From contig CM120642.1 in NCBI GenBank assembly GCA_051362555.1, positions 8,928,001 through 8,992,000 of the forward strand: DNA of 64,000 nt, in the 5' to 3' direction. This stretch comes from Lingula anatina. Lineage: Eukaryota; Animalia; Brachiopoda. The number at the start of each line of letters is the position of its first letter. Positions within the stretch are counted from its first letter, which is position 1. A program made the position numbers and the translations under genes. Positions 304-51,290 of this stretch are shown here, one piece after another. The notes beneath the pieces are model-generated. The model saw only the letters and a program-made list of their open reading frames with translations, searched no databases and was not told the origin of the DNA.

Positions 304-3300
304 GTAGGTCTACTAGCATTTCCAGTCCCCCGCTATCTAGGTCATTGGTCTACTAACATTTCCAGTTCTCCTCTATCCAGGTCGTTGGTGTACTCTAGGG
401 AATGCGCAGGATGTCCATATTTTCCTCCTGTGAGGAAAAAGGAATGATTTGTATATATCTTACGTGTATTACTGTTATTATATGCAATTAAATGTCTGAG
501 ACTAAGGTAAAGCTAAATAATGGGAACATGCTTTTAGTATGCAGTAGACATTTCTGGTGATTTTACTCTAGACATTCTTACTAACGGAATGTTAACACAA
601 CTGTGTGTTTAATTTTTCAGCACATATAACATGAATGTTAAATATAAAATGGACAGATTATATATTTTAAAAACGTGTGAAACGATTCAGCTAAAAATTA
701 CGTGAATTCAGAATTTAAAAAATGCAAAATCGAATGGGCTTTTGGTTGAACATGAAATAATACCACTCATTTTGTCAAAAGCCTTTTTGGATTTCACTCT
801 ACAAACACTTGTTCCAAATATTGTTTATGTCCTCTCAGATATATCTATAAATCCAGTAATATTTCGTCTACGGTTTTATCATCCTTTCAGGTGGACTAGC
901 TGCGGTAATATACACAGACACCTTTCAGACCATAGTCATGATGATAGGGGCGGTGGTGCTTATGGCCATTGGTGAGTGTCGTCATCACGCCCAAATCAGC
1001 ATTTCTCCGAGGTGTTTAACCTATTCCTTGTTAGTCAGATTTCCCCTGGTCCATTTAGTAATAATCGAATTTCCGTAGTTCGACACTTCGTACGTCTATT
1101 GTTTTTCATGGAACGTCTTGTTATATTTGCTGTACATGAGCATGTCGTAGCTAACTTGCAATTAAAATTTAAAATTGCACTGAAAATAAGTGAATTAGTT
1201 TAACACAGAATATGATACATCTTTCATTGATGCTATATATATATATATTCAGGCTTCGTAAAGGTGGGAGGTTACAACAACCTTATCCTGGCGTACACGG
1301 CTGCAGTACCGACAGTACGTGATCTGAACTCCACGTGTGGTTTTCCGCGGGAAGATGCATTCCACATGTTCCGTGACCCGGTGACCTCTGACCTCCCATG
1401 GCCTGGCCTCATTTTACAATCCACCATTGGCTGTCTCTGGTACTGGTGTGCTGACCAGGTGAATATGGATTGATATTGAATACGGATTGATATTGAATAT
1501 GAATTGACATTGGATATGAATTGTTATTAAATATGGATTGATATTTACAATTTTCGCCACTTTGCGCGTATGTTAATGTATTATTAATATTATATTATAA
1601 ACCATAAACTTGAGACAGTTATTGATTAATTTCACTACATACTGACAGCAAAAATAAGAAATTTTAAAATCAAAAACAAAAATTCTTTTAACAGTTTTGG
1701 GAAAATTAAAATTTCCAGCTATATTAATTTCGTGTTTTATATATATAGACCTAAAGGTATATAACGTGCTCAGTATGTGCCTTTAATAGAAACTGAGGAT
1801 GTTGTTAAACGCCATTGCTTGATGTTATTTTCAGGTCATAGTTCAACGTGCCCTTGCAGCGAAATCCATCACTCACGCCAAGGGCGGGGCAATCCTAGCC
1901 GGTTACCTGAAACTCCTCCCTATATTCATAATGATATTGCCCGGAATGATGGCACGAGCTCTTTATCCTGGTGAGTGAAGATGTAATAAGTTTTCCGCTA
2001 CTCAATGTGTACAGTCACTGGTGGATCCGGGATTTTGGTAAGGTGGAAGGGGGGGCACAAAGATTTTGCTGAGCGAAGCCACATGGTAAATCATGGTAAA
2101 CGGGGACAAATTTACCGTGACATGTAGGTTTAAACAATTGCGTGGCTTTGTCTCGTTTTATTTGGTATAGTGTTTTTGGGGGAGAAGGGGGAAGGTGAAG
2201 CCTTGAAAAATTAAGAATTTGCCGAGACATGGATTTATGTGTAGTTTTAATCCCTTGTATCCCTCTTGGATTTTATTCTAAAACTCTGTGAATAACTCTA
2301 AAATCCTCTTCATACCGACGCCAATGAAAACGTGGCCTTCATCGCTGGCAGAGGTAAATGTCGTTTTTGTCATTTTTTTTTAGTTGTTTTCTTGTTGTTT
2401 CAGAGGAGGTCGCGTGTGTGGATCCTGCAGAATGTGAGAAATACTGTGGCAATCCGGTCGGCTGCTCCAACATCGCTTACCCTAAGCTGGTACTTACTCT
2501 TTTGCCAGTAGGTGCGTACGTTAGTTAAGGTTATATACGTGCATTTTCAATAGTGATCTTGAAGGAAGCTTTACGATTTTCCCGGAGTAAACGATTACAG
2601 TATTTTGTGTTCAGGTCTGCAAGATTTTAGGTCACAGTGCTGATTTTAAGAACGGCAGATTTACGTATTAGGAATTTGATATTATGATAGATGGGACAAT
2701 GTGTGATTTACCTAGTTACAGTAGTACCGTTCTTCAAGGGGAATGCCCCTGCTCTCCCCAGTTATTATAAAGAAAGGGAAAGGTCAGTCAAGAACGCTTT
2801 AAGGTGTTGGCAAGGGTTATTCACATGAAGAAGCCCTCTCAATCGGTGAAATATACTAGTTAATCAATAAGACACAGTAGGTTCCCTGCATAACTACAGG
2901 TACCAATTCCATAATACGCAATTCCAGGTCTGAGAGGACTGTTAATGGCAGTAATGATGTCAGCTATCATGAGCTCTTTGACTTCAATCTTCAACAGCGC
3001 CAGTTCTATCTTCACTCTGGACCTGTGGAGACGATTTCGCGGGAAAGCAACTGAACGAGAGCTACTCATTGTTGGACGGTACTACATGTAGAAAATCATG
3101 AGAGGCATACAATTCACCTAAGACCTTTATACATAAAAAATGGAACTTTCCTTGGAATTTTCAGAAATTTCAACTCCGCCATAAATGCTACATGTATTAG
3201 TAGGAGTCAGTTTGAATGTCCTAAAAACATAACGGTTATGATGGAGAATGAATGTTTTAATTAAATTGCTGTCAAGGTTCATATACACTATTGCCCAAAA

Positions 3301-4751
3301 TGGTTGGCACACGGAAATTTTGAAAATTTTGAAAATATCGCTTGGATTCTTTCATTATTATTGATATTATTAAAAATATTTACGAGAATGCCGTAGGAAA
3401 ACTTATTTTTTATGTTTTACGTACTGTATCTCTAATTTTCCTATTAAACCTCTTTCAGAGTGTTCATCCTGTTTATGTGTGTGATAAGTATACTATGGAT
3501 TCCGCTGGTAAAATCATCCCAGGGTGGGCAGCTGTTCATCTATATCCAGGCCGTGCAAGGCTACCTCGGCACGCCTATCGGGGCTTTGTTCCTATTAGCA
3601 ATAGCGTGGGGAAGAATGAACGAACAGGTATTTCATAGTCTTGGCTGGTTTTATTTTCAAAGAGCTTCTAATGTCGGTTCTACACGTGCTTTGCAAACAG
3701 GCGCAACAGCTTGCCAAGGGAAATGGGAAATACTGATAAAAAGTTTTTAAAGGAAGTGTTTGAATCCTTGATTGGCTCTTTCAGGGTGCATTCTGGGGAA
3801 TCTTGGCTGGTCACACGTGCGGAGTCATCAGAATGATTCTTGACTTCAGTTTCCCAGGCCCAAAATGCGGTGAACCAGAGACCAGACCAGAAATTCTCTA
3901 CAAGGTCCACTATTCCTATTTTGGTTCCTTGACCATCGTGGTGACAAGTTTGGTCACTATTGTGGTCAGCTTGCTGACCAAACCACTGGATCAAAGGGTA
4001 AAGCATGCTTTGGTACATTTTTGTATTCCGAAATTGGAATAGGCTATTACTTTTTATTTGATTAAACGTCCAAAATTCTCTCTCATTCATTTTTAAAATG
4101 TAGATTTTTTGTAATGAGACAAAAAATCTCTTATTGTTTTGTAGAATTTTAAGAAGGTAAATAAAAGCATGGAAGGGTCTACTGTTTTACTCCTCTATCT
4201 TATCCTTCATACATGTACGTTACATTAGTATCCCCCATTCTCCTAAATCAACATTGTTTACTTCATTGATTACCACGTATTTTTTATGTTCTAGAATTCA
4301 GGGGTGAAAGAGGGAAAGGTTGTCCAACTTAAGCAGGTAATAACACGGGTTTGAGAGCCTCGGGGAAGGGATTTATGTTATCAATATGAAGCCACCGTCT
4401 ACACATAAAAACACAATGTCTGTCTCACCTAACGCATTTTTCTACCCAGCTTTGTGGACTCACGTGGAAAACACGGTGGGACGCATTCAGGGGAATACAA
4501 GCTGGTTCTCCTTCTGATGCCGTTGACGTGTCCAGCTACGCCTCGGAGACCGGGGCTCCTGATTACAACCCGGTTCCTATGGTGGCCGTGCAGAAATCCC
4601 AAGACACAAATTTAGAAAAAGAAACGAAGTCTGAAACGGGTATCAACGGCATGAAGGAGTTAACAGCGAAAGAGCAAATATTAGGTAGGACAAGAATTGT
4701 TCAATACATTTTGCTAAATTGCAGTTTCTTTTGCTTGATGTTTTATAAAAT

Positions 4752-4805
<54 letters not shown>

Positions 4806-5742
4806 CAGTTGTTGCTACTAATCATACCTTACTATTTATATAGATGGGTGTTCTTTTTTCCCCCTGCTCATTCTTATTGATAATTATTTTTGCAAAATGA
4901 ACCGTCATCAGTTGGATGATGGACATGACCAGTTTATTTAGTGTTATTCATTAGTTTATGCATTGCAATCCGCGAAGCATTGGCCTAACTCTCGGAGAGA
5001 ACTAGAATGTCCCAGTTGATACAAAAAACGGATGGACAGTGATAACTCGTCTTTTTTAAAAAAATCAAAGGGATAATTTGCGGGTATATATACACCAACC
5101 ATACTCTACATTTTAGAAATATACAACGGTATCAGAAAAACACCGTGAACAGCTTTCGTCAGCACTGAAGCAAAATTGTGGTAATATTTGTTTTGTAGGA
5201 TATTGGTTTTGATTTTTGTCTGATTCCACTGCACCTCACATTCGGTTGTTAAAACCTACAAAAATTATTTCAAAAACCAGCTATAGCACTTCATTATTGA
5301 ATACTGTTACTGTGAAAGATATTTGTTCAAAATAATAACATAGAAATAAAAAAACGGCTCAGTGCAGCTTTATATTCTTCGCGGTTTTGGTAGGGTAATA
5401 TTACACTGCAAATAAGGGGACCTACATGTACACGGATTTAACAAAGACACGTTACAAAGACACGCACAATTCAAATGAATGTCTCTTAAATTTTCAGAGG
5501 GTACAGAAGAAAACAAGATCGAGCACCAGGAGGAGTCGATGTCCACAGAAACAAAAACGACCATTTTACGACATTGGGTCCACTTCGTTTGTGGCATACC
5601 GGAAATAGCTCAAGCCAGTGTAAATGATGCAGCCGTTAGAATGGCCGCGATGATAGAGAGTTCAAAGTGGAGATTTATTCTCAACGTCAATGCCGTTATT
5701 GCATTGGCCATAATGATGTTTTTGTGTGGGTTTTTTGCATAA
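198..5742 (+). CDS. Spliced sodium/glucose (or myo-inositol) cotransporter, SLC5A/SSF family; 3' ten exons, 5' part lies upstream of the window
   Basis: Exons 198-303, 891-971, 1253-1458, 1835-1970, 2404-2511, 2928-3078, 3459-3627, 3785-3997, 4450-4684 and 5498-5742 all have AG/GT boundaries with compatible phases. The joined translation contains [71 protein letters not shown] and a C-terminal TM helix ending GFFA-stop. The exact paralogue cannot be assigned. Confidence 0.95.
891..971 (+). CDS. SLC5A exon ([27 protein letters not shown])
   Basis: tttcag acceptor, gtgagt donor, SSF signature motif. Confidence 0.93.
1253..1458 (+). CDS. SLC5A exon (FVKVGGY...[21 protein letters not shown]...WYWCADQ)
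   Basis: attcag acceptor, gtgaat donor. Confidence 0.93.
1463..1545. repeat. Intronic 17-bp minisatellite (atatggattgatattga)
   Basis: About five imperfect copies just after the exon donor. Confidence 0.75.
1835..1970 (+). CDS. SLC5A exon ([45 protein letters not shown])
   Basis: tttcag acceptor, gtgagt donor. Confidence 0.93.
2404..2511 (+). CDS. SLC5A exon ([36 protein letters not shown])
   Basis: tttcag acceptor, gtgcgt donor. Confidence 0.93.
2928..3078 (+). CDS. SLC5A exon ([50 protein letters not shown])
   Basis: ttccag acceptor, gtacta donor. Confidence 0.93.
3459..3627 (+). CDS. SLC5A exon ([30 protein letters not shown]...RMNEQ)
   Basis: tttcag acceptor, gtattt donor. Confidence 0.93.
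3785..3997 (+). CDS. SLC5A exon (GAFWGILAG...[11 protein letters not shown])
   Basis: tttcag acceptor, gtaaag donor. Confidence 0.92.
4450..4684 (+). CDS. SLC5A exon ([10 protein letters not shown]...variable cytoplasmic loop)
   Basis: acccag acceptor, gtagga donor, LxGLTW motif; donor position less certain. Confidence 0.75.
4753..4798. repeat. (TAT)n microsatellite
   Basis: Direct observation. Confidence 0.95.
5498..5742 (+). CDS. SLC5A terminal exon (...WVHFVCG...[21 protein letters not shown]-stop)
   Basis: tttcag acceptor; typical SGLT terminal helix; TAA at 5740-5742. Confidence 0.92.
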
Positions 5743-6953
5743 ATTACAATGTAGGCAGTGTGTGGCCTGTGTGTAACATTGATCTCAGGCTCATAAGAAT
5801 GGCATCAGTTTGTTTTTTCGTAAGGATTTCTAAAAAATGAAATACTGTAAGGATTTCTAAATAATGAAATACTAATTAAATTGTATTTTTATTCCTTTTT
5901 TGATTCAAAATCTTATTGGGCCTCAAACTAAATTTTGTTTGGTTGCCACGTTAATACCATAACAGAACAGTCATGTGTCACTTTCTTGTCCTGAATACCA
6001 AAACGTTTTATGCAAAATAGGTGCTCGAAGACGAAATGAGCACTATCATGTAAACTATGAAATTTCCTTTACCACGTATGTATAATCATAGTGAGCTTAA
6101 TGATAATGTTACATTCACAAAAATAAACTATTGCCGAAACCACATTTTTTTATTTTGCAGAGCCAAAATTTTTGAAACATTTTTGATTTCATAAATTAAA
6201 TAAAAGACATTATAACCTACACTAAATTCCGCTCGTTTCTCTTTGTAAGCGCCTGTCGGCCAAATTTATGTTAGCTTGATTGGATACTTTAATTCGATTC
6301 TATATAATTCTAGATCAAAATAACGGTAAAGTAGCACGATTTGAAACGCCGCCATGCGACATCTAACTTGAAATTTTAACAAGTTTTTTATACTCATTTC
6401 TACCGTATTAAATATTTTCTTATATTTACAACATGACAATCGTTTTGTATCGCGGAGTATTATCTAATTTTTCATAGTCGTGGGGTGGGTATTGTGAAGT
6501 CCATTTCACTCATACGCGTACATGTAGGTTGCACATTCAGATTGAGATGGCCACGAAAGTACTTGGAATCTTGGTTTACGGGGATGCAATCGATAGATGT
6601 GCTATTTCACCGTAATTTGAATATATCATTTAAATGCCCTAACATATGACAAAATATTTAATTCACGGTCATCACACCGATTTCCATCTATTGTTGAAAC
6701 CATGAGTCACCTACCCTATCCCGATAATTACGACAGCCACACGCACCTTATTTCTAGTACAAGTACTAGTATATAAACTACGTTCTGCGCTAATTGTGGA
6801 GAAAACTTTGGAAGATCAGTGTGGCCACCCTAGCACCCTCAGCAGACGAGACAAGTTTTACTTGTGACATATTACGAATAAAACTGTGGTATGGAGGAAA
6901 TGATCACGCCCCTCACAACTGTCTGTATGCAGTAATCAATATATCCTGGCATA

Positions 6954-7177
6954 GACTGGGTTCCCACAGATTTAGATCGGTCCATCTGGATCGACATAAC
7001 TCCCTGAGGGTTCACGCTAAATTGCTGTCAGCTTCCCGGAGCCGAGCGCGCACAAAAGTTAATTACCCCCTTACAGCTTTTAGCAGGCGGGACAGACATT
7101 TAAGCCGGTTAAGCCGACAGCAATCTAGTGAGACTCCCCAGGGGGAGAGATCGATCTAAATATCTGTGGGGATGGTC
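6954..7177. mobile_element. PIF/Harbinger-type (Tourist-like) MITE
   Basis: Imperfect TIRs (ttcccacagatttagatcg / cgatctaaatatctgtgggga); inverted homologue of 44922-45135; absent from the copy-B site near 40735. Confidence 0.7.
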
Positions 7178-7324
7178 TCATACATTCTGTAAACCAAATG
7201 TAAAGCGTCTTTGAAAGTATGTTAAACACATCGAAAATATGCCTAAATCATTTCAACGCCTACATATCCTGCAATTCAGACCGTAAAACCGATATATCCC
7301 CATGAATAAAAAATAGCAGATGTC

Positions 7325-8550
7325 ACTCTATTGCCGTGAACATTCTCGACTATTTTCACACCCGAATCCTCGTTTCCCGTTGTCATCAATCATGTATAGG
7401 GGAGACCGGGGCTAGTTGGCCCAGTTAGACACTTTTGGCCTTGTAGAGCCAACTAGGAATGAGTTAGAGTAACAAAACCGGTTTCAAAGTAAGCCTCATC
7501 AACTAAGCTACGTATGCAACGTCATTATTTTTCAAATATAATGCCAGATGGCTCACAATTTGACAAAAAACGCAGTTGACGTCAGGGGGTGCCAACTTGC
7601 CCCGCCACGGGGCAAGTTGGCCCCCTATACAAAAATGGAGTAAATATCCCACGTAAACGCCTTGCAATACATTTTTATACATTTTTAATTTATTAAATTG
7701 ACTTTTGAGAGTCTCTGATGAATAAATAGTTCAAATGAGGTAGATTTATTGAGGTTTCCGTACGTCACGTTGTAGGGGGGGGGGTATGTGTTGCAAGAAG
7801 CAGAATATCTATCGATGAATTTGTTTTATTTTAATAAAGAATTGATTAATAATGGTATAAAACAGGTTTTTAATGAATGAAAACGAATAATAAATTTTCG
7901 TTTTAAAAGAAAGTAACATATTCAGTTTTAAACCATTGAGTTTGTTTCAACAATGGCCTCTAGCTGTGTTGCGCGCAAAGGTTTGTGGGTAATATGAGGG
8001 TCCAACTTGCCCCGAGTCAAGTGGGCCAACTAGCCCCGGGTGCACACTTTTTATTTTAAAGGATGGCAGCCATTTATGGTGCTAGAATGAGCAACGATGA
8101 TACGTCTCTGTGAAACTTGAAACATTGAGCTTCAGTTTGTTGCCCTATACATATATTATATTCGATCAAAAGCCTATGAAATAGATTTTTAAATCTCTTT
8201 AACAAAATTACTTTTAGGTGCAAAAATACTTTATTTTGACTCACCGCTTAAGTAAAACTTTTTAACGTCCGACACCTCCTTTGCATTGTAGGCTACGGTC
8301 ACTTTACAAGAGTATGTGGCCAATTTTTTAACTTCGTAGTTACTTTGTCATAAATTGACGGGGGGCCAACTTACCCCGGGGTCCAACTAGCCCCGGTCTC
8401 CCCTACATTGACTCTTCTTGAAGACGAATGGGCGGCAATAAAGGTTACAGTTTTATTAAAGTAGCTTGCCGTAAAAATCAGCATAAAAATAATCAATACA
8501 CTGAAAAAACCTTCCAGTTTCCTCTAATTTTCTCGCTTGAAGGATAAAAC
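7325..8550 (-). pseudogene. N-terminal remnant of the DxD/GT-A-like gene (paralogue of 41300-42474), interrupted by a MITE and missing most of the catalytic region
   Basis: 7325-7398 plus 8404-8550 align with 42270-42500; about 1.4 kb of copy B (40.82-42.27 kb) has no counterpart here. Confidence 0.8.
7399..8403. mobile_element. 1-kb non-autonomous DNA transposon, Tc1/mariner-pogo type
   Basis: Perfect TIRs GGGGAGACCGGGGCTAGTTGG / CCAACTAGCCCCGGTCTCCCC; TA on both sides; internal CCAACTTGCCCC motif repeats; absent from the paralogous site near 42350. Confidence 0.93.
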
Positions 8551-10044
8551 TAGAACAATCGATGAAAATGTATATACAACATTGGTCAAAAAGGTTGTCC
8601 CACCCCCATTTCCATGTACTTTTATTTACAAATGATCACCTCACAGCTGTGAACTGTTAGAAATAGTGCTTTTTATTACGGATACCGTGTCTAACATGAT
8701 TAATGGTTAAAAAAATACAAAATAGTGGTGAAAATATACACATTTTATACCATTTAGTAAAATTTATAAGAGGTACCCCCTCAAATCGACTGTTTCACTG
8801 TGACTTCTACAGATGTAAAGAAATTGTCTATAAAATTGAAAAGACGCCATCAAATGTCACCAAATTCACACACAATTAGCATTAGGGTGTGCTCGTTAAA
8901 AATTACGTGCCTAACAGCGTGTGCGTCTACCGCGTACTGCAATTATCTCCTGTAGACGGCGGCGACAAGCCTTCAACACGGGTTAGCCTATATATGTTTG
9001 TACCTGTAGATCACTGTTGCAAAACCCTTGACCTCAAGCCTAAACGGCAAACACATTATTTGACCACTCGCACTGAATAGGAACGAAGGTAAATACCAGC
9101 AATTTAGCTGTCAACTGTATTTTTTCTTCGCAAGTGTCAGTTTTTATAGTGGTAACTACCAATGAAAAGATTAAATAGGAGGAATGTGTGCCCACTGAAT
9201 AATTTGCACTGGTGTACAGTATTGAATATCCCCTGTCGAAAAAGAACATTTAACAAGGTAGATCGGTAGATGATTTTAAGTGCCGCTTGAGGTTCATCCT
9301 AGTTTGGATTTGTGGTGTGGTATAGTCTTACTTATACCTCTGTTTAATTCCCCTTTGGAAAATGATATTCAGGGATAGGTCCCTATGGGCGTGCACAGTA
9401 CTACGACTGCAGCTGTTGTTGAAAGCCCTGAGATAATGATTAAAAAAAAAAGCTTCTAGGTCACTCGCCTAGGTCGTGTTGCGGTGTCTGGGTGTCCCTT
9501 TCTGTACTCTGATTAGGTGGGGGACGAAGGCGGTAATATTAAATTGTGGTGTCCTCCCTCGTAGAACAGCTGAATGCTAGACGCCGATTTAGCAGGGGGT
9601 CTTTTATCTTTACATGATTTAATGGGCTTTTAATTCTTTTAATTTAATGATTGTATGGAGTTTTTTTATCTTTACATAATTTAATGGACTGTGTTCGTCC
9701 GTGAGGGTGGTCGATTCTAATTTTTACATTGCGTTTTCTGCCATCTATCCATTGTATAATACAGCTGGTATAAGTCATTTGAGTTAGGAACGTGAAACGT
9801 AGCATGATTTGGGATGTGGAAGGGCACTTTGGATTTTTTTTTTACTTTGGGTGTGATCCTAAGGGCGGTTGTATCTAATATGACATTGTAATTTCTGCTA
9901 TCTACCTTTAGACAATAAAAGATAGGAACGTAACGTTATGGGGATTGAAAAACGTACCTGTCTTTGGGGATGTGTATATGGATCTTTTTACAACGTAATT
10001 TCTGCCATCTACCCTTAGGCCATTAGAATAACGCAATTTTTTCC

Positions 10045-10820
10045 ATGCCTGAAATTAACTATCTGAGTTTTATCCTCATTCAGAGTCAGCTGCCATTTAT
10101 GAAACCACTTGTACACTACATCAAGCATTGCTTGCAAATCTTTTTCATTTTTTCATTCCCAGCTACCGAAGTACAACATCATCCGGATAAAGAAGATAAC
10201 AGATCAGATCAGCTCCTACATTAATGCCCTTAACCAGTGCTTTAACACCATGTACCAAATCATTTATATACTATTAGATGTCAAAAAGTAAGGGTGACAC
10301 CAGACACCCCTCTTTTACTCCAGTATCTGTGTCAAAGAAGCCTGTTGTATAATTATTAGCCCTAACACAACACTTGGGTTTACTATATGAGGCCTGATGG
10401 AAATTCATGAAATTTCCGCAAATCCCCAACTTGTTAATTTTGTCGAATGCTTTTTCTTGCATCGATGTAACACGCATATAGGTTTTGATTTTGCTTTAGA
10501 CCATTTTCTTTAATACTAGACATTATACACATACAGCTGATCCAAACACCCTCGATCTTGTCTAACCATTTTGCTCGTCAACTATTATTTTATTGTCCAT
10601 AGCCCTTCTGTTTAGTACATGTATAAATGTGTATATCTATATGCTAGATGCTTATGTTATTCCTCTGTATGCTGGTGGATCACATACATGTAGATTAACA
10701 CAATTACCCTTAGGAATTGGGGTTAATAACTTAAACCAGTCACTAGGCACGACTGAATTAGCAAAGCAGAACCTAAATAAAATATGTAGAAATCTAATAG
10801 TCGCCTTTTTTTCAGAACCT
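10045..10820 (-). mobile_element. Degenerate LINE (CR1/L2-like) reverse transcriptase fragment
   Basis: KAFD...GICGNF...TGVKEGCLVSPLLF motifs with frameshifts; paralogue of 44100-45480. Confidence 0.85.
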
Positions 10821-10825
10821 TTGTA

Positions 10826-10960
10826 ATCCTTTTCCTGTGTTTGGTGCATTGGAGTTGCCGATAAAGATCTAGTAGGCTGGGTTGAAGATGAAGTTGCTGA
10901 AATGCACGATGCGGCCGAGGCAGGGACAGGCTTTGGTCTGGGTGGCTGCACTGCTCTAAT
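10826..10960 (-). mobile_element. Fragment homologous to the tail of the Crypton-like element at 49.5 kb, inverted
   Basis: QPPRPKP...SATS...RSLS..PM.Q..EKD matches 49485-49615 on the opposite strand. Confidence 0.6.
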
Positions 10961-12449
10961 TCCTAGGTGTGAGAAAATGTTGCATGGTGCATGTGTCAGC
11001 ATTTTCAGTCCCTTTGTCTGCACGGATAATACTGGTGCATCCTTTATGTTCATCTACAGTCTCCATAAAATAACCTCTATAGTTCTCGCGCCTTACTAGT
11101 CCTTTCTTCTTCAGGATCCTTTTAAGAGTTCTTTTAAGAACTCAGTAACACTTCATGCTTTGCACTAAGACTAGATACAATGTCTTTATATTTGAGTCCA
11201 AGATTAAAGTAAAGCGTAATGAGATCGTCTCTACTCATGTCTGCCATTTTGACTGAAGTTGGTTTGTGATTGGCCAATTAACTAGAGCGCTCGAGATAGT
11301 AAGTCGAGCGCTCGAGATAAAAAACAAATTTTTGAGTGAGCCCTGCGGGGCTCCGTATATTTGCGCGCGTTAGCGGGTTATGCCGTTGTGCAGTTATTTT
11401 GTTGTCCACTGGCCTAAAGATATATATAACCGGTTTACTATATGTCCCGCTTATCCTGTTACTTGGGTCACGACAGGTCATTCTTCGTTATTCTTCAGTC
11501 AGTCGTCACTCGTGTGTAAATTTACTGTAAGAATAAAGAAGCTGGTGATCGATTTGCAGTTTAGTCTATGTGTTATTTATACTCAGCTTTAATTGGAGCA
11601 GTCGACAGGAATTTGCAGGCTATGGTTCCTACTGATGTCAATGAGATTGACGGTGAAAATCAGTGAAATCTAGCCTAAGAAGAGAAGGTACCTTGGAGGT
11701 GGGCGTGGCTGATAAAGAACCCGATCTCACCAGACCTCAACCATGACGTGTACCATTGTTAGCAGACTATATCAACTGTTGTGCCCTCTTGGTTCGCGAT
11801 TTACCAGAGTGAAACGATGTAATGACTGTTATGGCCAACATTGCCTTTCCAATAGCGATAAGATAATTCAGCCGAGAACCCCGTATATTCGTTCTGTATG
11901 CACTCGGGCTGTTCAGAGGCCGACGATTTTCATTTACTGTCGTAGCGCCTGTTAGTTGTGTGAAGATACACATAGTGCTCATTAACCAAATTTAGAGAGA
12001 CTGTTGACGACATTAGCTCTCTCGTCAAGAATCTTAACACACGTAAGTGCGGAGAGCTATTGTTTGGACGCCCTCTTCTGACGTGTCATCACCCGTTTGC
12101 TGTGAGCTACGAATCCGGAGGAGATCGACAAGGACTCGAAAACGGCCTATTGTTTGTTTCGAGACATCGCTATTCGCACTATCACGAATCCGGTGGAGAT
12201 TGACAAAGACCTGAGAACAGTACTGCTGTTTGTTTTGAGCCATCCTCAGTCGCAAGACCACGAATCCGAATCAACATCCACGAACGGAGACCTGAGAACG
12301 GCGCTGGTGTAAATCAAAAACGAGATCAACCGCCGTCAAGGAGGATTCAGTGATATTTTTGACGTATGTAAATGAACATTTGCGAATGGATATTGTTTAT
12401 TTGACTCATTCACCGTGTAGCGATTTGGGGTGAGTGCAGAAAAATCACC

Positions 12450-12522
12450 GACCAGACCAGGAATCAAACCCGGGACCCCTCGCTTACAGGGCGAGTGCTC
12501 TTACCTACTAAGCTACCCGGCC
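12450..12522 (-). tRNA. Second tRNA-like copy in the 3' LTR, B box mutated to GGTTTGATTCC
   Basis: Same sequence as 12641-12713 apart from one B-box substitution. Confidence 0.6.
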
Positions 12523-12640
12523 GGTTCTACCTGCCCCTGGCACTACACTCCTCCCACCCAAATGCCGAAAGACGCGAGCCCTATCTCGCAACACCGCTGC
12601 CACCATTGTAGCGATTTGGGGTGAGTGCAGAAAAACCACC

Positions 12641-12713
12641 GACCAGACCAGGAATCGAACCCGGGACCCCTCGCTTACAGGGCGAGTGCTCTTACCTACT
12701 AAGCTACCCGGCC
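12641..12713 (-). tRNA. tRNA-like (Thr-TGT-derived) Pol III unit in the 5' LTR; probably not a translational tRNA
   Basis: GGCCGGGTAGCTTAGTAGGTAAGAGCACTCGCCCTGTAAGCGAGGGGTCCCGGGTTCGATTCCTGGTCTGGTC: A box, intact B box GGTTCGATTCC, stem CTCGC/GCGAG around loop CCTGTAA (C instead of the usual U33), downstream T5. Confidence 0.7.
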
Positions 12714-13084
12714 GGTTCTACCTGCCCCTGGCACTACAACCGTTTTCATTAGGTCGTTGGATTAGCGGACAACTATATTTAATCATTATTTTCAGTGGAC
12801 AGGGGGTTCTAAGGAGATCCAGCAAACGATAAGTATAAGCAATTTGCTTTTTGCGTAGCTAATTATTGTGATACATGTACCTTCTTGCTGATATTGCCAA
12901 GATGTTGCTTTATATGTGCAGCTGATTATTACGCTACACTCTGCCGTTAAATGTGATCATAATCGCGCTGTTTCGCTTGACCGTGATTTTGAGCCATTGC
13001 TTGTGCTTCTGTGTGTTACAGTTGCTTATCTTTTTAATTTACAGTTTGTGTAACTTGTTTTACATCATTACCCTAAAATAATGT

Positions 13085-14870
13085 GTAGCCAGGTGTGTTA
13101 CCTAATTTCCATGCAACTTTCGAAACAATTAATGTAAGCAGTTGCATGTTCTGTGGTCAGAAATGTGAGGGGTGGTCTTTTCGGCAATTTCTGCCCTTGT
13201 ATAAAAACGCATGGGTTTGGTTAATCTTTGGAGTGTATTTAGAGAAGCAACAAAGGGATCCCTCTGAAACTTGTCAGGTACCTTAGAGAAGATATGCTTC
13301 GACAGCTAAGCAACTCAGCTTTCTATGGGATTCTTGGCCTCAGAGAAAATGGCTAGAAACGGACAGCCATTGCCAGATAATTCAACATTTTTCAGGAACC
13401 GTTAGTAAAGTCCTCCAAACAAATGCTACAACAGGGGCACCTACGCCAATACTTCCACCAGGGTGTCCGCGTACCACACAAAGAAGACAGGATCGCCTTC
13501 TCCTTAGAGTGCGCCGTGCTGGTCGTACAAAGACAACCAGTGTCCTCAAAAAAGAGTGGCAGAATGCCTTTCAAACGCCCGTTTCAAGGTCCCTTGTAAA
13601 CAAGAGATTACAGCAAGCCGGTTATTTTGCACGAAGGCCAGTAGGGAAACCACTGTTAACAGCAGGTCATATACAGCGACGTCTGCAATGGGCTGGGGAC
13701 CACGTGCGTTTGCAGCCAAAACACTGGAATCACGTCGTTTTCAGTGATGAGGCCAGATATGGAATTTGGGGGGTTGAATGTCGAATCCGTGTCCGCCGAC
13801 GTGTACGAGGGGCATAAAACGATGATTGTGTACTACCTAGGGTGCAAGCAGGGGTGGTAACGTCTCTGTTTGGGGAGCATTCCATGCCGGTGCCCAGAAC
13901 CAGTTGGTTTTTCTAGGAGGCAACCTCAACCAGGGTTCCTACAGAGACATTCTACAGCAAACAATGCTTCGATTTGTAAGAGTCATCTTCAGGAACAACT
14001 TTGTGTACCAAGACGACTGTGCAACCCCACATCGAGCTAGCAGAATCATTGTTTTTCTTCAAAACCAATGGGTTCAGCAACTGCCCTGGCCTGCAAACTC
14101 CCCAGTAATGAACCCAATTGAAAATCTGTGGGCGGAAGTAACTCAGAGAATTAATAGCTATGGTCATCGGCCGGTAAATAGTGATGAAGTGCAACAGGCA
14201 AATATCACTGCGTGGAATGATATCCCCATCCAAACTCTAAAAAACTTGTCACAGGGTATGGCATATAGGATGAGGGCGCTGCAAGCGGCTGCTGGAGGTC
14301 ATACCCGCTATTGATGACTTTTCATGATTAACTGTAATGCTTTCTTTGACTGTGTAACATATCACTGTCCGGAGGCTATCATTTTCTTTAATATCTTAGC
14401 TTAAAGTTAATACTGACATCAAACTGTTGATATGGTTTTCTGGGGGTGTTCTCTTCTTTTGAATGACATCTTATGTCAGATTTGAGATTATTGACCAAAA
14501 TATCTCACAATAGAAGACTGGATATTTTCCTCACTCAATGATATACTTATTTGATGAATCAAGCCAAAAAATATTTAATCAGGACTCAAAAATAACAATG
14601 ATAAAAAATATTCCATATTAAGTAGTAACCCTGTATGTACAAAATTTACGACAGGTAAAAAATGTCAGCCTTTCGGTCTGACAAGTATGAAAATTTTGTC
14701 AATCTGAAACAAAAACAAAATTATAGCAAGAGCCCAAATTATTTGATTTTTAAACGTTTTTATGCGTATTTTCATCGTTTTCAGTCCCAGACAATTAAAA
14801 CATTCAACTAAAGTGTTTCCCACACAGTTCATACTTTTCAACTATCTAAGACAGTTAAATATACGTAGGC
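13085..14870 (+). mobile_element. Tc1/mariner transposon relic; transposase pseudogene about 13290-14314
   Basis: HTH region (RRPVGKPLLT), WNHVVFSDE, FVYQDDCATPH, WPANSPVMNPIENLW and GGHTRY; broken by stops and frameshifts; absent from copy B. Element ends are approximate. Confidence 0.88.
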
Positions 14871-15649
14871 CTACTTTAATACTAAGCATATTTGTATTAC
14901 TTTACAAATACGTTGTTGGATTATGTTTATTATCCATTTTGTCTTTACCATACATGTATTATGTACGTGTAGCTTACAGAAAGGCTTTTCTGCATTTTTT
15001 GTAAAAATATGCCCATTGAATTTTCCAATTCTCTTGTCATTGAGTTCAGAAATAAATAATTTTTTATTTCGCCGATAACGTTCTTGAATGTTTTGTAAGT
15101 AGAATCCCCGTGTAAAACTTCAAAGCTTTTACTTTCTTTTTCGATAATCTCATGCTTGAAGTCTTTTCTTAATTTTTAGGCCCCGGCCTATTCTTCAATT
15201 TTTTCTTCAAATCTTTATAATGTTTTTTTTCTCGCATTTTTTACCCCCGAGTTCTATTTGCCGATAGTTCATTATATACGTTGTTTAACTAAGCATTTCT
15301 GTTTTTTATTAAAGCACCGTTGAACTCCTAATATTATAGTTTTTCTTCCCGCCTTCGAAATGTTCAGCGCAAACGCGGTGCCCTGCTTTTGATCCAAACT
15401 TGCTATATTTTCCTTTCTTTCTACCATATTTTTCATTCTAACGGGTTTGTTGGGAACTTATTAAACCTCATGTGTCGATCTCGCTTACTGTTATTGTAGT
15501 AGTGGGACAAAAAGCACGTAAACCCAGCCATGGTTGTAAGCACCGCATTAAGTGTTTCGACGTAGCAGGGCTCCCCTACCCACAATGCAATTTCCATTTC
15601 CGGAAAAGTTGAAAAAGGCTACTTTGTGTATCCCTGTAACGTTAGTTGC

Positions 15650-16335: not shown

Positions 16336-17120
16336 ACCGATAACACGATAAGTGGAAAACCATTTTACCTTTTGACTTGAAACTTGCAGAACTGATGAAT
16401 ATTCATAATACGCAGGTCAAGTTCGAAAATCAGCATGATCGGGTCACTTTTAGGGAATTTATGCTGTTTTTTCACTTTTTTCAGCATATATGCAGCACCG
16501 ATAACACGATAAGTGGAAAACCATTTTACCTTTTGACTTGAAACTTGCAGAACTGATGAATATTCATAATACGCAGGTCAAGTTCGAAAATCAGCATGAT
16601 CAGGTCACTTTTAGGGAATTTATGCTGTTTTTTCACTTTTTTCAGCATATATGCAGCACCGATAACACGATAAGTGGAAAACCATTTTACCTTTTGACTT
16701 GAAACTTACAGAACTGATGAATATTCATAATACGCAGGTCAAGTTCGAAAATCAGCATGATCGGGTCACTTTCAGGGAATTTATGCTGTTTTTACACTTT
16801 TTTCAGCATATATGCAGCACCGATAACACAATAAGTGGAAAACCATTTTACCTTTTGACTTGAAACTTACAGAACTGATGAATATTTATAATACGCAGGC
16901 CAAGTTCGAAAATCAGCATGATTGGGCCATTTTTAGGGAATTTATGCTGTTTTTTCACTATTTTCAATATAAATGCAACACTGATAACACAATATAAGAA
17001 AAACGGATCGGCCAATTGTAATTATACTCACAGGAGTGGTCAATCTTACTAAAACGCAGGTTGAGTTCGAAAATCAGCATAATCGGGCTATTATTTTAGA
17101 AGTTATACTGTTTTTTCCCA
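16336..17120 (+). repeat. 161-bp tandem repeat, about 4.9 units
   Basis: Unit starts at 16336, 16497, 16658, 16819 and 16980; the last unit is degenerate. Confidence 0.95.
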
Positions 17121-17519
17121 TTTCCTCAGATTCAATTATTAGGCATGTTAACAGTCTCATTATTTAACTAATAAGATGCCTAAAAGTGTTTGTTTGATAT
17201 TTCCTGCATCTTTACAGCATTGTTAGTTGATTATGTAAAAAACATGGTAAACTTGTTATCATGTATTGTGTAATAAAGTGCCAAAAATGGAAATAAACTC
17301 ATATCATTGCAGTTTGTCAGATTCAATCATCCACTATGTTCAGAATCTCAGAATGGAGGAAATTGGACATTTAACACTGTTCTATTGATACTTTTCCCAT
17401 CTCATCAATTTTCTTAGTTGGTCATATAAAAATGGCAGTAAAATGTTTATTTTGTTTTATGTTAAAAAAGTGTTAAAATGGAAATAAACCCATTTCAGAA
17501 CAGTGCTGTCTTGTTTACA

Positions 17520-17803
17520 TTTTGGCATTTTCAAGGTGTGACTTTGAAGTTCCATGGGCCTGAAGACCTTTGCTAGTCACATTTTCTGAATATCTGTGAT
17601 ACAAATATTTTATAATTAAAAATTGATGGTCATTAAGCTGTTAAACATTATGTAATATTGCATCAAAATTTGAAGAAACCCCTATTTTGGACACTGCTTC
17701 CGTGATGACCATTTAAGGAAAATCATGTCACTTACTGTTCTCAAACTTACAGGAAAGAAACATGGGACTAAAATACAGCTTCAGTAGGCAATGCAGTCTG
17801 TTT

Positions 17804-17846
<43 letters not shown>

Positions 17847-18230
17847 GCAGTTAAACAGTTTTTTGTGAAAATTTAATTTTTCACATATTGGCATTTTCAA
17901 GGTGTGACTTTAAAGTTCCATGATCCTGAAGACTTTTGCTTGTCACATTTTCTGAATGTCCATGTTACTAATATTTTATTAATAACATTTGATTGTCATT
18001 ATGCTGTTAAACATTATGTAATGTTGCATCAAAATTTGAAGAAACCCCTATTTTGTACACTGCTCCTATGATGACCATTTAAGGGAAATCATGTCACTTA
18101 CTGTTCTCAAACTTACAGGAAAGAAACATGGGTCTAACATACAGCTTCAATAGGCAACGCAGTCTGTTTGGTAAATTTTTCTGGCAATTTAACATTTTTT
18201 TGTGAAAATTTAATTTTTCACTTATTTGCA
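17520..18230 (+). repeat. Tandem duplication of about 365 bp inside the HINE; the first copy has an expanded poly-T
   Basis: ttggcattttcaaggtgtgactt at about 17522 and about 17888. Confidence 0.85.
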
Positions 18231-21200: not shown

Positions 21201-23046
21201 AAAGTTGCATGGCCCTATGTAGAGATCCCACTCTTTTGGGTCTTTGCACGATTAATATTGGTTAATTTTGTATTCAAAGTTTGGTTGTAGCTCTCTGAAA
21301 TATAAAATGTAACGTTTACTCTGATGCTGCTACACTGCTCGTTTTATAATACAATCGCTAGTGTAAGTCGTAAAAGTACATTTATTTGATTTATGTTAAG
21401 AAAAAGAAAGTAATTATTTATGAATAATATATAAATCACCCGTGAGTCCCTTTGCCTCTGCTTAAGGATTTCATTTAACTATGCAGTTTAGATATAGAAA
21501 GCATATTTACAACATCATTAAATCTGACAAAAATATTGGCACGTTTTCAGCCTTGTTATTGGGCAGTGCTTTCACTGAAGCGTGCTTCGTGAAGTAGCAT
21601 ATGGCTGCAATATAACACTGGTTACCTTGATACGATTTTGGCAGGTGGGCAAAATCAATTCTAATCTGACAAGAAAAACCGAAATGGTTAAAGATTTGGA
21701 AATTATGCCAAAACGTAAGATATGAAAAATTACCTTTTCCGTTAAATTTAATGTCCATCTTACTGTAAAGTATTTTGATGTATTTACCTAATTCCACGGT
21801 TTGCACTTTTCCACCACTATTGGGTGAAGTGGGACATGGTTCATTCTAATTTTTTTTAATTGCCACCTGGCACTGGTGGCATAACGAAACATATCTTCTA
21901 ATGTCTGTGGCCATGTTGTGCCAGTATATCTCTGTTCTACTTTGACCAGGGTTTTTGATGCATCCAAGTGTCCAGATTGAATTTAAAAAAAATAGAATTT
22001 TTTAGAATGAATCAAATAATGAAATATTTAATTTAATGATTATTTACGATGATAATGTCTATATTACTATTGAAATGTGAAGCTGGAAAATCAATTTAGC
22101 TGTAGAACATAAGTAAATAATGTATCGTAAGTAAATAATGTATAGCACCTTTGTCATGCATTTCTTGTAACAAGGCACTTTTCTTATCTTCGCTTTCCAC
22201 ACCTTTCCTCCATTTCCCCTTCTCCCTCTCTTCCTCCCCAATTTCTGTTTCGACTATCTTTCTTACAGCTCTGTAATATAAGCAGCTGCTTTCAAGCCAA
22301 AACCGAATGACAAATATTAATCTTAAATGTACCTGTAAATTGCGCTTTTATTAAATAATCTTCAAACTTTAACGAGTATATAATACTTACTTTGCAATGA
22401 TTTGCCGCGCTTCTCCTTATTGCTCTTTTCTGATTATTGGTTGATCATAAATTTTTGGAAAGAAGCCTCATTACCATCTCTTATTTTAGAGAACTTTAAG
22501 GTTATTGCCACCTTTCGCCAATAAACTCCTTATTTACTGCCTTTCATGCAGTCTTTTGGTAATAGATAAATCTTCAGTTTTTAGTGACTAGATTAATTTA
22601 ATATATGAAGAACGATTTAAGTTCAATGGTTCTCTTATGTTCAAGATTGGTGAAGCTTCCAACACCATTAGCAGCGAAAAATTTAAAATTAAACGAGACT
22701 TACCTTGGTTAAGTCGATGTTTGATTGTAATTCTGTGAGTGTAAAAATGAGGGAGGGCTTAAATGCCACCCTCCTCACCCAGCTTACTCAGTAATATAAT
22801 TCCAATGTAATCAGCTCACAGATATAAATAGGAAAGTTTGGATGAATTTTAAATTCTATTTCGTATAAAAATATCGGTCAGTCTTAAATGAGACTTTAAA
22901 GTAAAATGTGACAAACATCAATAAACCAGTATTCAATGGCCTTTATTTCAGCTTAAAATATCGTTTAGAACAGTTTCAACAAATCATCAACAGATACTCA
23001 TGTAAACCTATACATGCCAGTATATACTAGTATATGAATATGCTCA

Positions 23047-24050
23047 TTACTTCCTTTTTAAAACTCCATATTCAAATGTGGTAGTTTTATCCTCGATTTG
23101 TTTCTCATAGAATTTTGCAAATGTTTTTTCAGTACTCCAACCAGCTTTGTTCAAAATATCTGTCACTGGCACAGAATTCATTTTTGCCTTTGAAACAGCA
23201 GCAGCTCTCACACTGTGAGCACCAAATAAAGTAGTGTCTATTCCCGATTTTGTCATTACAACTTTGATCCATCTAGAAATAGTATCTCTTTGAACAGGTT
23301 TATAAGGTTTCATATAACTTATAAGCAAATTTTTATCAACATTATGCCTACGCAATGTCTTTGTACGAGCTATATACTCTTTTAAAACAGTATAAACACA
23401 CAACCTCCTATCTGGAGGGTAAGCTTTAAACACAATATGTGATGAATTACAACCTGGTCTACTTTGCTTCAGTAAACCACATAACTGAAACACAAACTCT
23501 GAACTCAACTTTTTCATATCAACAACAGAAATTAAATGCAATGTTTGTACACGTGTGGCATTAATTAATGCCATGAGCATTGTAAGTTTTAAAGTCAGAT
23601 CCTTCAAAGTCAAGTGCTTTACTGGTGAAAGTTTCCTTAAGAAAACCAGAACTTTATTAACATCCCAAATTTGAGCATAACGTTGTCTTGGTGGCCTCAA
23701 ATTATAAATGCCTTTCATATATCTTATCACCAATGGATGACTCCCTGCTGAAACTCCATCAATTTGAATACCCATTGATGAAATAGCACCTCTTGCTGTA
23801 TTTAAACTGTCATAAGCTAAGCCATCATTAAACTGTTTTGTAAGAAATTCTATCACCTCTTCCACATGTGGTGAAATTGAATTAATTTTCCTTTCACCAC
23901 AGTATTTGAACCAGCGTTTAATGAACACGTTGTATTGTTTCTTTGTCCCTGTACGCCAAGATGACATAAGTATGTGGGTTGATTGCTCAGAAAGGCCTCG
24001 TTCTCTAAACTGTTCCCTGATACTTTGCATACAATGAGTTTCAACTTGTC
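23047..24050 (-). CDS. DIRS tyrosine recombinase, open reading frame intact
   Basis: SSWRTGTKKQY, LINATRVQTL (R), LLKQSRPG (K), AHSVRAA (HxxR) and AGWSTEKTFAKFY (W, Y); overlaps the end of pol; start position approximate. Confidence 0.92.
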
Positions 24051-25900
24051 CATAAGAGGATGTTCCACTGGGAGCTTGTTCCCTGGTAAAGTTAGCAGAC
24101 CTTTTTTCTTTTGAATGACTATTGGGTTTTCCACAAGTAATTCCATCAACTTTGCAAACCATATCTGTGTTGGCCATACAGGAGCCACTATAATACCCCT
24201 GGCTTTGTCTTTGCGAATCTTCTGGATACAATGACCCAGCAAACTGAAAGGTGGAAACAGATAAACATAATTCAGTGTTCCCCAATCATAAGTAAATGCA
24301 TTAATACCCCAAGCAAAGGGGTCTGCCTGCCATGAACAATATCTTTCAACTTGCGCATTTAATCTAGAGGCAAAAAGATCAATAAATGGATTTCCAAATT
24401 TTTCACATATCTTTTGAAATACATTCTCATTCAACTTCCATTCTAAACGTTCATTAAACTTCCTAGAAGCATTATCAGCATCTACATTATCTTTCCCTGG
24501 CACATGGACACAGGTGAGCCAAACATTTTTCTCGATACACCAATGCCAAATCTTTTTTGCTATGTTATTGCAATCATAAGACTTAATTCCACCCATATTC
24601 TGAATATAGTCACATGCTGTAATATTATCACTCATGATCTTTACATGTTTATTTTCAAATCTAAATGTAAAAGACTGCAATGCATTTAATATTGCTAGTA
24701 ACTCTAAAGCATTTATATGAAGGTTAGCTTCTTCTGGAAACCATCTACCACCAATTTTTTGACCCTCCAAATGAGCACCCCAGCCTAATTTGGATGCATC
24801 AGTATACAATATAATGTCAACATTTCCTTTGTCAATTTTCCTTCTTTGCAAGTGGACATTTTCCATCCACCATTGTAATTCTTGCTTCATACTAATTGTA
24901 ATGTGCATCATAGCATCATAATTTCCATTGTTGCTTTTTAAAGCACTTATCTTCTGCTTTTCAAGTTCTCTATAATGGAGTTTACCATATTCAACAGCTG
25001 AGAATGTTGAAACTATAATTCCAATCACTTTAGCTACTAGTCTTACTTTTGCTTCTGTTTTAATGATAAGCATTTTACACTGCTGTACAATGTGATCCAT
25101 TTTATCTTAAGGTAAAGTCACCGTCATACTTTCAGAATCAATTATATTTCCCAAAAACAACAATGATTGTTGGGGAATAAGGACAGACTTTTCTGCATTG
25201 ATTATAAAACCAAGTGTTTCCATTAGATGTTTTGTGCATCTTATATTTTCAACACATTCGAGGTAATTATCTGAACACAATAAACTGTCATCAATAAATC
25301 CTGAACTAGAATGGCCAAGACTTCTCAATTTTGCATATACAGGCTTTAATAATTTCGTAAATATTTTGGGCCCTTCAGAAACGCCATTTGCAAGGCATGT
25401 GTATTGATAGATATTTCCTTCCCAAACAAAACGACAAAGAATTTGCTGTTCTTCTGCTATTTTCACACTATAATATGCATGCTTTATATCAATTGATGCT
25501 AGGAAGCATCCTTTTGTCACTAAGGTCAATGCCTTTTCAAAAGTGTCCATTTTAAAATGTTCATAGGGAATGTGTTGATTCAGCTTCTTAAGATTTAATA
25601 TCATTCTGTATTCTCCATTCTTTTTAGGGCGTACAAAAATAGGAGATAAAAACTGCCCCGGTACACTTTGAACTTTCTTAATAACACCAGATCAAGTAGT
25701 TTAGAAATTTCTTTCCTGATTATAATTGTTTCTTCTGTGTTAAACCTATATTTCACCATATCATTTAAGTTTTGAAATCCAATGTTGGTATCAACATTTA
25801 TATGACAATTTTGTACTATATCCAAGATATATGGGTCACTGGTCAATTTTCTCCATTCATCTACAAACAAATGCAATCTACCAGCTTGAAATTTATGTCT
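23853..25900 (-). pseudogene. DIRS pol: reverse transcriptase, RNase H and N6-adenine methyltransferase-like domain
   Basis: ILNLKKLN, IDIKHAY, FIDDSL, TDASKLGWG, HINALEL, SDN, DNVDADNASR, IDLFASRLN and YLFPPF motifs; one 1-nt frameshift near 25690 and one in-frame TAA at 25107-25109. Confidence 0.93.
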
Positions 25901-25905
25901 CACCT

Positions 25906-49802: not shown

Positions 49803-51290
49803 TGTTAGCGGGTTATACTGCATTCATGTCAGAGATGCAGTTATTATGTTCTCCACTTTCACCGTGTAAAGATATATAACCGGTTTACAAAACGTCATGT
49901 TATTGAGTAACATAGTACCGCTTATCCTGCTACTGGGGCCACGTATAAATTCTCCGTTATTCTTCAGTCAGTCGTCACTCGTCAGATGTATGTGTAAATG
50001 TACAATAAGAATAAAGAAGCTGGTGATCGATTTGCAGTTTAGTATATGTGTTATCTATACTCGGCTTCAGTTGGAGCAGTCGACAGGAATTTGAAGGCTA
50101 TGGTTCCTACTGATGTCAGTAAGATTGATGGTGAAAATCAGTGAAATCTAGCCTAAGAGGAGAAGGTACCTTGGAGGTGGGCGTGGCTGATAAAGAACCC
50201 GATCTCACCAGACCTCAACCATGGCGTGTACCATTGTTAGCAGACTATATCAACTGTTGTGCCCTCTTGGTTCGCGATTTACCAAAGTAAAACGCTGTAA
50301 TGACTGTTATGGCCAACATTGCCTTTCCAATATCCATAAGACAATTCAGCCGAGAACTCCGTATATTCGTTCTGTATGCACTCGGGCTGTTCAGACTGTC
50401 ATTTACTGTTTACTGTCGTAGCGTCTGTTAGTTGTGTGAAGATACGCCTAGTGCTCATTAAACACATTAAGAGAGAGACTGTTACGACGTTGACGACATT
50501 AGCTCTCTCATCGAGTATTGCCGACAAGTACGCACACATAAATGCGGAGAGCTATTCGTGGAGTTTGGACAGTCTTCTTCTGACCGTGTCATCACCCGTT
50601 TGCTGTGAGCTACGAATCCGGAGGAGATCGACAAGGACTCGAGAACGGCTTTATTGTTTGTTTCGAGGCATCACGAATCCGGTGGAGATTGACAAGGACC
50701 TGAGATCAGCACTGCTATTTGTTTTGAGCCATCCTCAGTCGCAAGACCACGAATCCGAATCAACACCCACGAACGGAGACATGAGAACGGAGCTTGTTTT
50801 AATCAAAGACGACTGTCAACCGCCGTCAAGAAGGATGCAGTGACATTTTTGACGTATGTGAATGAACATTTACGAATGGATATTGTTTATTTGACTCATT
50901 CACCGTTTTCATTAGGTTGTTGGAGTAGTGGACTACTATATTGAGTCGTTAATTTCAGTGAACAGGGGATTTTAAGGAGATCCAGCAAACGATAAGTATA
51001 AGCAATTTGTATCCCTTTTTTGCATATGTGTTGCCTGTTGTGTTGCTTTTTGCGTAGCTGATTATTGTGATACATGTATCTCCTTGCTGATGTTGCCAAG
51101 ATGGTGCTTTAGAATTATGTGCTGCTGATTATTACGCTACACTCTGCAGTTAAATGTGATCATAATCGCGCTGTTTCGCTTAACTGTGATTTGAGCCGTT
51201 CCTGTGGGTGAAGCTTCTGTGTGTAACAGTTGCTTATCTTTTTAATTTTTAGTTTGTGTAACTTGTTTTATATCGTTACCCTGAAATAAG
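49803..51290 (+). mobile_element. Probable decayed LTR (49803-50069) with PBS-like motif and non-coding internal region, copy B
   Basis: TG...CA ends, TATAAA, TCAGTC and AATAAA, then gt-TGGAGCAGTCGACAGGA resembling a tRNA-Ser PBS; no second LTR or TSD found. Confidence 0.5.

Follow-up and report, generated by a model that had tools for sequence, protein, structure and literature searches.

An element matching the published tRNA-bearing family Helenus-1_LAn in Lingula anatina, and its empty paralogous site

The Helenus families are TRIMs of less than 1000 bp that code for no protein, in which TG...CA LTRs, each with boxes A and B, flank a PBS and a PPT, and which in animals carry a 4-bp TSD (Kojima 2024, Biology 13:119, PMC10886601). 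Helenus-1_LAn, from the brachiopod Lingula anatina, is listed in Data S1 of that work, is deposited in Repbase according to the same source, and appears in Table S1 with an LTR of 132, an internal portion of 59, a full length of 323 and a TSD of 4. Thus, family, host, size and TSD have been known since 2024 and are not new here. For the Lingula families the paper gives neither a PBS assignment (brachiopods are not among the panels of Fig. S2) nor a copy number (Table S3). It also states that Pol III activity of Helenus is unvalidated, and its main text leaves the terminator of these elements undiscussed, mentions termination for Cassandra alone and makes no mention of read-through. Our literature search, conducted outside most subscription journals, found no experimental follow-up on Helenus and, among the matches listed, none naming a helper element for the Lingula TRIMs; a 2026 sugar beet paper cites Helenus just in passing in the sections available (PMC13570524).

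In the 64-kb stretch of DNA analysed here (the window), the minus strand bears a well-preserved, gene-less LTR element of 323 bases, composed of two 132-bp LTRs and a 59-bp core and read in the order 5' LTR, one base, PBS, short core, PPT, 3' LTR (Table 1). Judged by its bases, the element is a full-length copy of Helenus-1_LAn: compared by eye, with no aligner, 318/323 bases agree with the published consensus, the T5 run included, and full-length copies are defined in that work as exceeding 90% of the consensus in both identity and length (PMC10886601). The five single-base departures fall at position 38 of each LTR, position 103 of the 5' LTR, position 82 of the 3' LTR and internal position 51, the last two placing deviations from the family consensus in the B box of the 3' LTR (12466) and at the lone pyrimidine of the PPT (12556). 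Both LTRs start with TGTAG and end with CTACA on either strand, and they differ from each other at two of 132 sites (12445/12636 and 12466/12657), both of which are transitions. The sequence-only reading had described two 132-bp TGTAG...CTACA repeats with two differing sites, separated by a 59-bp spacer with a minus-strand PBS one base past the 5' LTR and a PPT touching the 3' LTR, and it had suggested the name Helenus; the layout was reproduced on recomputation, and the name proved right, the lengths, the TSD and the matching bases specifying Helenus-1_LAn. The longest stop-to-stop frame in six frames reaches 75 codons and no protein is encoded, so that the 323-bp element fits the Helenus definition of a short non-coding TRIM, and TG...CA LTRs with boxes A and B in each, the flanked PBS and PPT, and the 4-bp TSD expected in animals, here backed by an empty paralogous site, are all present. 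Taken together, the LTRs, PBS, PPT, TSD, tRNA units and empty site are above chance level. No second copy of the element is found within the window.

Table 1. Features of the Helenus-1_LAn copy and of its empty paralogous site (positions in the window)
Feature	Position	Strand	Basis and remarks
TSD, left copy, 4 bp	12412..12415	.	ACCG; single copy at the empty paralogous site
3' LTR, 132 bp	12416..12547	-	130/132 as in the published Helenus-1_LAn LTR, by eye
T5 run of 3' LTR	12440..12444	-	seen in the sequence; predicted 3' end of the template RNA
tRNA-like unit, 3' LTR	12449..12522	-	ARAGORN; Rfam RF00005, 54.0 bits, E 8.1e-9; A box 12515-12504, B box 12470-12460
PPT, 12 nt	12548..12559	-	11/12 purines; abuts the 3' LTR
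Internal portion, 59 bp, non-coding	12548..12606	-	58/59 as in Helenus-1_LAn-I, by eye
PBS, 14 nt	12592..12605	-	one base after the 5' LTR; complementary to the tRNA-Leu-AAG 3' end including CCA
5' LTR, 132 bp	12607..12738	-	130/132 as in the published LTR, by eye
U3 of 5' LTR	12738-12714	-	predicted border
R of 5' LTR	12713 to ~12631	-	predicted borders
U5 of 5' LTR	12630-12607	-	predicted border
T5 run of 5' LTR	12631..12635	-	in the published consensus; predicted leaky Pol III terminator
tRNA-like unit, 5' LTR	12640..12713	-	ARAGORN; Rfam RF00005, 56.6 bits, E 1.6e-9; A box 12706-12695; B box 12661-12651 (intact); anticodon position reads TGT; internal Pol III promoter by prediction
TSD, right copy, 4 bp	12739..12742	.	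ACCG
Empty (pre-insertion) site	50902..50905	.	single ACCG in the paralogous block 49915-51289

The insertion site itself could be examined through a pair of paralogous blocks, one filled (11444-13081) and one empty (49915-51289). Once the element and one TSD are taken out, the blocks align without a gap at the site and show 41 mismatches over 581 columns (7.1%), which bears out the earlier call of an ACCG duplication and of an exact empty site in the duplicated block. The LTRs diverge by 1.5% (95% Poisson range 0.2-5.5%) as compared to 7.1% between the host blocks, and this sequence comparison fits an order in which the host block was duplicated first and Helenus-1_LAn inserted afterwards. 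Absolute dating was rejected, as with just two differences the confidence range spans 30-fold and a substitution rate is not available. The description of the element as young hence holds relative to the duplication but not in absolute terms, the junction being present in another sample as well (see below). The blocks lie in a large local duplication, approximately 5750-28450 versus 39940-62350, with an offset of 32-38 kb and pieces that are 70-94% identical; it includes a short inverted piece (22447-22683 versus 59347-59112), and each copy bears later insertions of its own.

The window holds several further features. A Tc1/mariner-type transposase remnant with two frames (HTH_Tnp_Tc3_2 and DDE_3) is located at 13287-14314, and no terminal inverted repeat of it was found within 12900-15000. 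Tandem arrays occupy 16336-16994 (161 bp, 4.1 copies, 96%) and 17517-18201 (366 bp, 1.9 copies). On the minus strand, a 325-codon open frame at 29161-30138 encodes a glycosyltransferase 61 domain (PF04577, E 3e-14), while one of 365 codons at 41300-42397 is without a Pfam match and has broken paralogous pieces at 59462-59725, 62680-63007 and 7318-7371 (40-47% identity). About 110 stop-free codons at 3650-3990 on the plus strand resemble a membrane-protein exon.

To place the copy within its family, contigs of four public DNA runs (X1, X2, X6 and X7, of 10 listed) were mapped to 12050-13100, with the boundary bin omitted and with summed contig depth taken as a relative measure that is not a copy number. 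The depth of the element is far above that of its flanks in all four runs: 263-2234 versus at most 123 in X1, 588-7566 versus 75-294 in X2, 69-2166 versus at most 7 in X6, and 2550-14206 versus at most 680 in X7. Furthermore, among 24 of the 94 loose-end rows, at least 10 (at least 21 contigs) lie no more than 2 nt from an LTR end and continue into unrelated flanks. Helenus-1_LAn is a dispersed multi-copy family, with raised depth in 4/4 runs and foreign flanks at the LTR ends, and the check for further genomic copies that the sequence-only reading had set came out in its favour. At site 12701 the letter of the published consensus accounts for all depth in the four runs, and at 12556 for most of it (dominant in three runs; a minority share, 962/1264, plus deletions in the fourth); these two departures of the present copy are thus not the family norm.

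The same contigs inform on the individual insertion. One X1 contig with the letters of the paralog runs straight through the empty site; it is not independent, since X1 may be the window's own source. In X6, which is another sample, a contig of depth 2 spans the right junction (41 + 139 letters) and does not have the letters of the paralog at the seven listed sites, which indicates that more than one animal carries the insertion. An X2 contig at the left junction reaches 28 letters into the LTR, below the 31-letter bridging rule, and was not counted. Likewise not counted was an X7 joint that goes back 190, as two near-identical LTRs explain it with no tandem array. At the loose ends 12692 and 12530 (X1 and X7), contigs share the tRNA part and diverge in U3; their sequence suggests that the same genome contains sister families, in keeping with the existence of Helenus-2_LAn and Helenus-3_LAn.

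Over half of each LTR, 74 of 132 nt (56%), is a cloverleaf, which with its boxes, its TGT and the T5 run agrees with what had been noted from the letters. ARAGORN calls tRNA-Thr(tgt) in both LTRs, the sole two tRNA calls within the window, and both units exceed the RF00005 score cut-off of 29 bits. The cloverleaf folds at -24.4 kcal/mol, compared to a minimum energy of -25.1 kcal/mol, with G-U in 5/21 pairs, three of these in the seven-pair acceptor stem, and it has C at loop position 33, which in tRNAs is nearly always U. On account of this C and of the acceptor-stem G-U pairs, a functional tRNA-Thr gene was rejected. Congruently, Helenus-1_LAn is not in the list of possibly functional tRNAs (Fig. 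S1 of PMC10886601). It is likely that the LTR tRNA is an internal promoter; it would not be the primer, and probably has no role in translation. A hairpin of the whole LTR is not significant against shuffles (z -1.39, 18/200). As copies of this family pass as tRNA-Thr genes in both ARAGORN and Rfam, they will inflate tRNA counts.

The PBS is complementary over 14 nt, including CCA, to the end of honeybee tRNA-Leu-AAG (by eye, the honeybee tRNA being a proxy and not the host's), the 3' end of which is printed in Fig. S2A of Kojima 2024 (PMC10886601). With that proxy, the earlier assignment to tRNA-Leu's 3' end is supported. Under the same tRNA-Leu-AAG primer the paper lists Gypsy-57_CaAu and Gypsy-130_CGi, from goldfish and oyster. 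The LTR tRNA, on the other hand, shows no long perfect match to the element's own PBS, the best duplexes being interrupted (-13.0 and -12.7 kcal/mol), so self-priming by the LTR tRNA was ruled out for want of a good complement. The proposal that one tRNA serves as promoter and a distinct one as primer gains support, the end of the LTR tRNA mismatching the PBS, and Helenus in general behaves in the same manner (PMC10886601).

A Gypsy element is the likely trans mobiliser of Helenus-1_LAn, and mobilisation by Gypsy is inferred in Kojima 2024 too (PMC10886601). Within the window there is no autonomous Gypsy with the same PBS, and the PBS motif occurs once. A metagenome scan with the 20-nt junction of LTR end and PBS returned two matches, both rejected as chance since neither extends past 21-27 nt: one (L002) lies inside a bacterial gene, the other (L001) is without an LTR pair or tRNA. 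The retroelement frames of the window are DIRS-like and do not represent a Gypsy helper. The DIRS-like retrotransposon at 22852-27303, with long open minus-strand frames at 23047-27000, has RT (PF00078), RNase H and Dam-type methyltransferase domains as well as gag-like and recombinase-like frames without a Pfam match, and is bounded by a perfect 42-bp inverted repeat; it is missing from the paralogous block and is therefore probably recent. Fragments at 56736-58959 on the minus strand have the appearance of a second, degraded recombinase-type retroelement, without a Pfam match.

Each T5 run begins 4 nt past the tRNA unit and 5 nt after the acceptor stem. The T5 belongs to the Helenus-1_LAn consensus, and T4 or T5 runs are also found in the sister families Helenus-2_LAn and Helenus-3_LAn. 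Counted by eye in 45 LTRs of 57 lophotrochozoan families, in the portions of supplement parts 6-7 of PMC10886601 that hold them, approximately 28 of the 45 have a T4 or longer run after the B box and approximately 17 do not, whereas all 11 complete wasp LTRs in the covered portion of part 7 have one. By this sequence tally, a T4 or longer run after the tRNA unit is common and not required. In yeast, excerpts of one preprint report that T5 gives intermediate release, that read-through of primary terminators is frequent, and that structure beside a short T run raises termination (bioRxiv 2021.08.27.457903). For human tRNA genes, the sections available of another describe read-through as common, as extending several hundred bases and as able to pass several terminators, with four U's reported as the optimal terminator in human cells (bioRxiv 2025.10.17.683076). 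The sequence-only reading had the T5 stop Pol III before the PBS; the T5 is indeed present, but as a block it does not stand, given the leakiness of terminators in yeast and human and the approximately 17/45 LTRs that lack a T4 run.

We consider it probable, at roughly 0.7, that the Helenus-1_LAn copy is transcribed by Pol III from its 5' LTR and then reverse-transcribed and integrated by Gypsy. In such a cycle, Pol III would be recruited by the 5' LTR's A and B boxes, the LTR tRNA acting as promoter, with a start near 12713. Many transcripts would stop at the first T5 and yield a dead-end RNA of 83 nt, while some would read through U5, PBS, PPT and U3 into the 3' LTR, to end at the second T5 (274 nt) or beyond. 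An RNA that passes the first T5 and enters the repeated tRNA segment would possess an R of approximately 80 nt at both ends and could serve as template; host tRNA-Leu would prime the minus strand at the PBS and the PPT the plus strand, and the Gypsy integrase would insert the DNA with a 4-bp duplication. The simplest reading of the T5 would accordingly be that of a leaky terminator, which makes it a question of yield and no true paradox: under the standard LTR mechanism, any RNA that re-enters the repeat past the first T5 can act as template, and the T5 would then reduce the yield but not prevent replication. Such a leaky T5 may also limit run-on into host DNA. Read-through could nevertheless be rare, considering the acceptor stem 5 nt before the T5, the four-U optimum in human cells and the structure effect in yeast.

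An alternative, unlikely in our view, is that the same known element uses a Pol II transcript as template, from host read-through or from a cryptic promoter in the LTR; the tRNA unit with its T5 would in that case give only short Pol III RNAs or represent a captured SINE head. The T5 problem would thereby disappear entirely, many copies would have many chances to lie inside host transcripts, and multi-unit Cassandra transcripts that read through LTRs are reported from RT-PCR and ESTs in the portion consulted of PMC7215508. However, neither TATA nor a poly(A) signal (AATAAA/ATTAAA) is present on the element strand, and just 25 nt lie upstream of the 5' LTR tRNA unit. Moreover, the A and B boxes are kept across fungal, animal and plant Helenus, unlike the remainder of the LTR, and Helenus lengths of 311-1263 bp suit the limits of Pol III (PMC10886601), which speaks against a Pol II template.

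We give less credence still to the T5 being a position-dependent, built-in Pol III terminator, at which the polymerase reads on in the 5' LTR and stops in the 3' LTR, an arrangement that is not described in Kojima 2024 (PMC10886601). At the 3' LTR, the transcribed U3 would lengthen the acceptor stem by 3 bp, to at most 2 nt from the U run, making termination stronger; at the 5' LTR, the RNA does not include U3 and escape of Pol III would be more frequent, after which U5 would pair with the PPT/U3 junction and close the core into a stem. When U3 and tRNA are folded alone, the three extra pairs form at a probability of 0.64-0.80, and hairpins beside short T runs increase termination in yeast, in the excerpted text of bioRxiv 2021.08.27.457903. 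In the full 267-nt nascent RNA, however, the LTRs cross-pair and the extension is absent at the 3' end. The 8-bp helix between U5 and the PPT/U3 junction reaches a probability of 0.91-0.95 in the read-through fold, and Helenus-3_LAn retains it with a G-U to A-U change (by eye), yet the fold is weakly better than shuffles (z -1.97, 9/200; duplex 339/5000), and pyrimidine-rich and purine-rich tracts pair through composition alone. The approximately 17/45 related LTRs without a T4 run, in the tallied portion of the supplement, also argue against it. If true, such a switch would be a Pol III counterpart of the retroviral two-LTR poly(A)-site problem, solved in 323 bp. Separately, several animal Helenus consensuses in the tallied supplement portions display a pyrimidine-rich stretch after the tRNA unit that seems, by eye, complementary to the PPT and first LTR bases; from the sequences, this complementarity may be compositional.

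That a local tandem duplication of a tRNA-Thr gene, or a tailed SINE, mimics an LTR element has next to no probability despite ARAGORN naming both units tRNA-Thr(tgt), as the empty site and the dispersal of the copies refute it, and it is opposed by the TG...CA ends, PBS, PPT and 4-bp TSD, the lack of a tail, the other contigs that continue from both LTR ends into unrelated flanks and the match to a published TRIM consensus.

As a discovery the Helenus-1_LAn copy adds little, with family, host, size and TSD in print. The small additions are the assignment of a tRNA-Leu primer to the Lingula families, a filled and an empty paralog that together establish the TSD and which event came first, and the recognition of a T4-T6 run often found behind the tRNA unit. 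Being among the shortest Helenus (range 311-1263 bp) and with an intact 5' promoter, the copy is a handy template for testing whether Helenus is driven by Pol III.

Among known systems other than the family itself, close ones are Helenus-2_LAn and Helenus-3_LAn, which share the layout, the 4-bp TSD, the PBS start and a T4 or T5 run after the tRNA unit. Bivalve and nemertean families (such as Helenus-4_PiIm and Helenus-1_TeGr) likewise have the same layout and a 4-bp TSD, and Helenus-4_PiIm also has TGT at the anticodon position. In all of these, the LTR and core sequences differ from those of Helenus-1_LAn, and the listed bivalve Helenus are primed by Lys, His, Ile, Pro, Glu or Ser tRNAs, unlike the Leu assigned here.

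At greater distance, Cassandra of plants and Ajax of nemerteans, 5S-bearing TRIMs of the proposed TRIMp3 group, resemble Helenus-1_LAn in having a small-RNA-derived Pol III promoter in both LTRs, a PBS, a PPT and no proteins. They differ in carrying 5S, whereas the element here has tRNA only (two Rfam matches in the window), and Ajax has a 5-bp instead of a 4-bp TSD. Cassandra is the sole system among the three with transcription shown, a transcript being reported from the 5S unit of the 5' LTR to that of the 3' LTR in the parts consulted of PMC10886601 and PMC7215508. SINEs of the tRNA-derived type (SINE2) also possess a tRNA-derived internal promoter with A and B boxes, but the element here has no LINE-derived tail or A-rich end and departs from their head-body-tail structure. 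Indeed, the two LTRs, PBS, PPT and 4-bp TSD point to insertion by an integrase rather than by target-primed reverse transcription.
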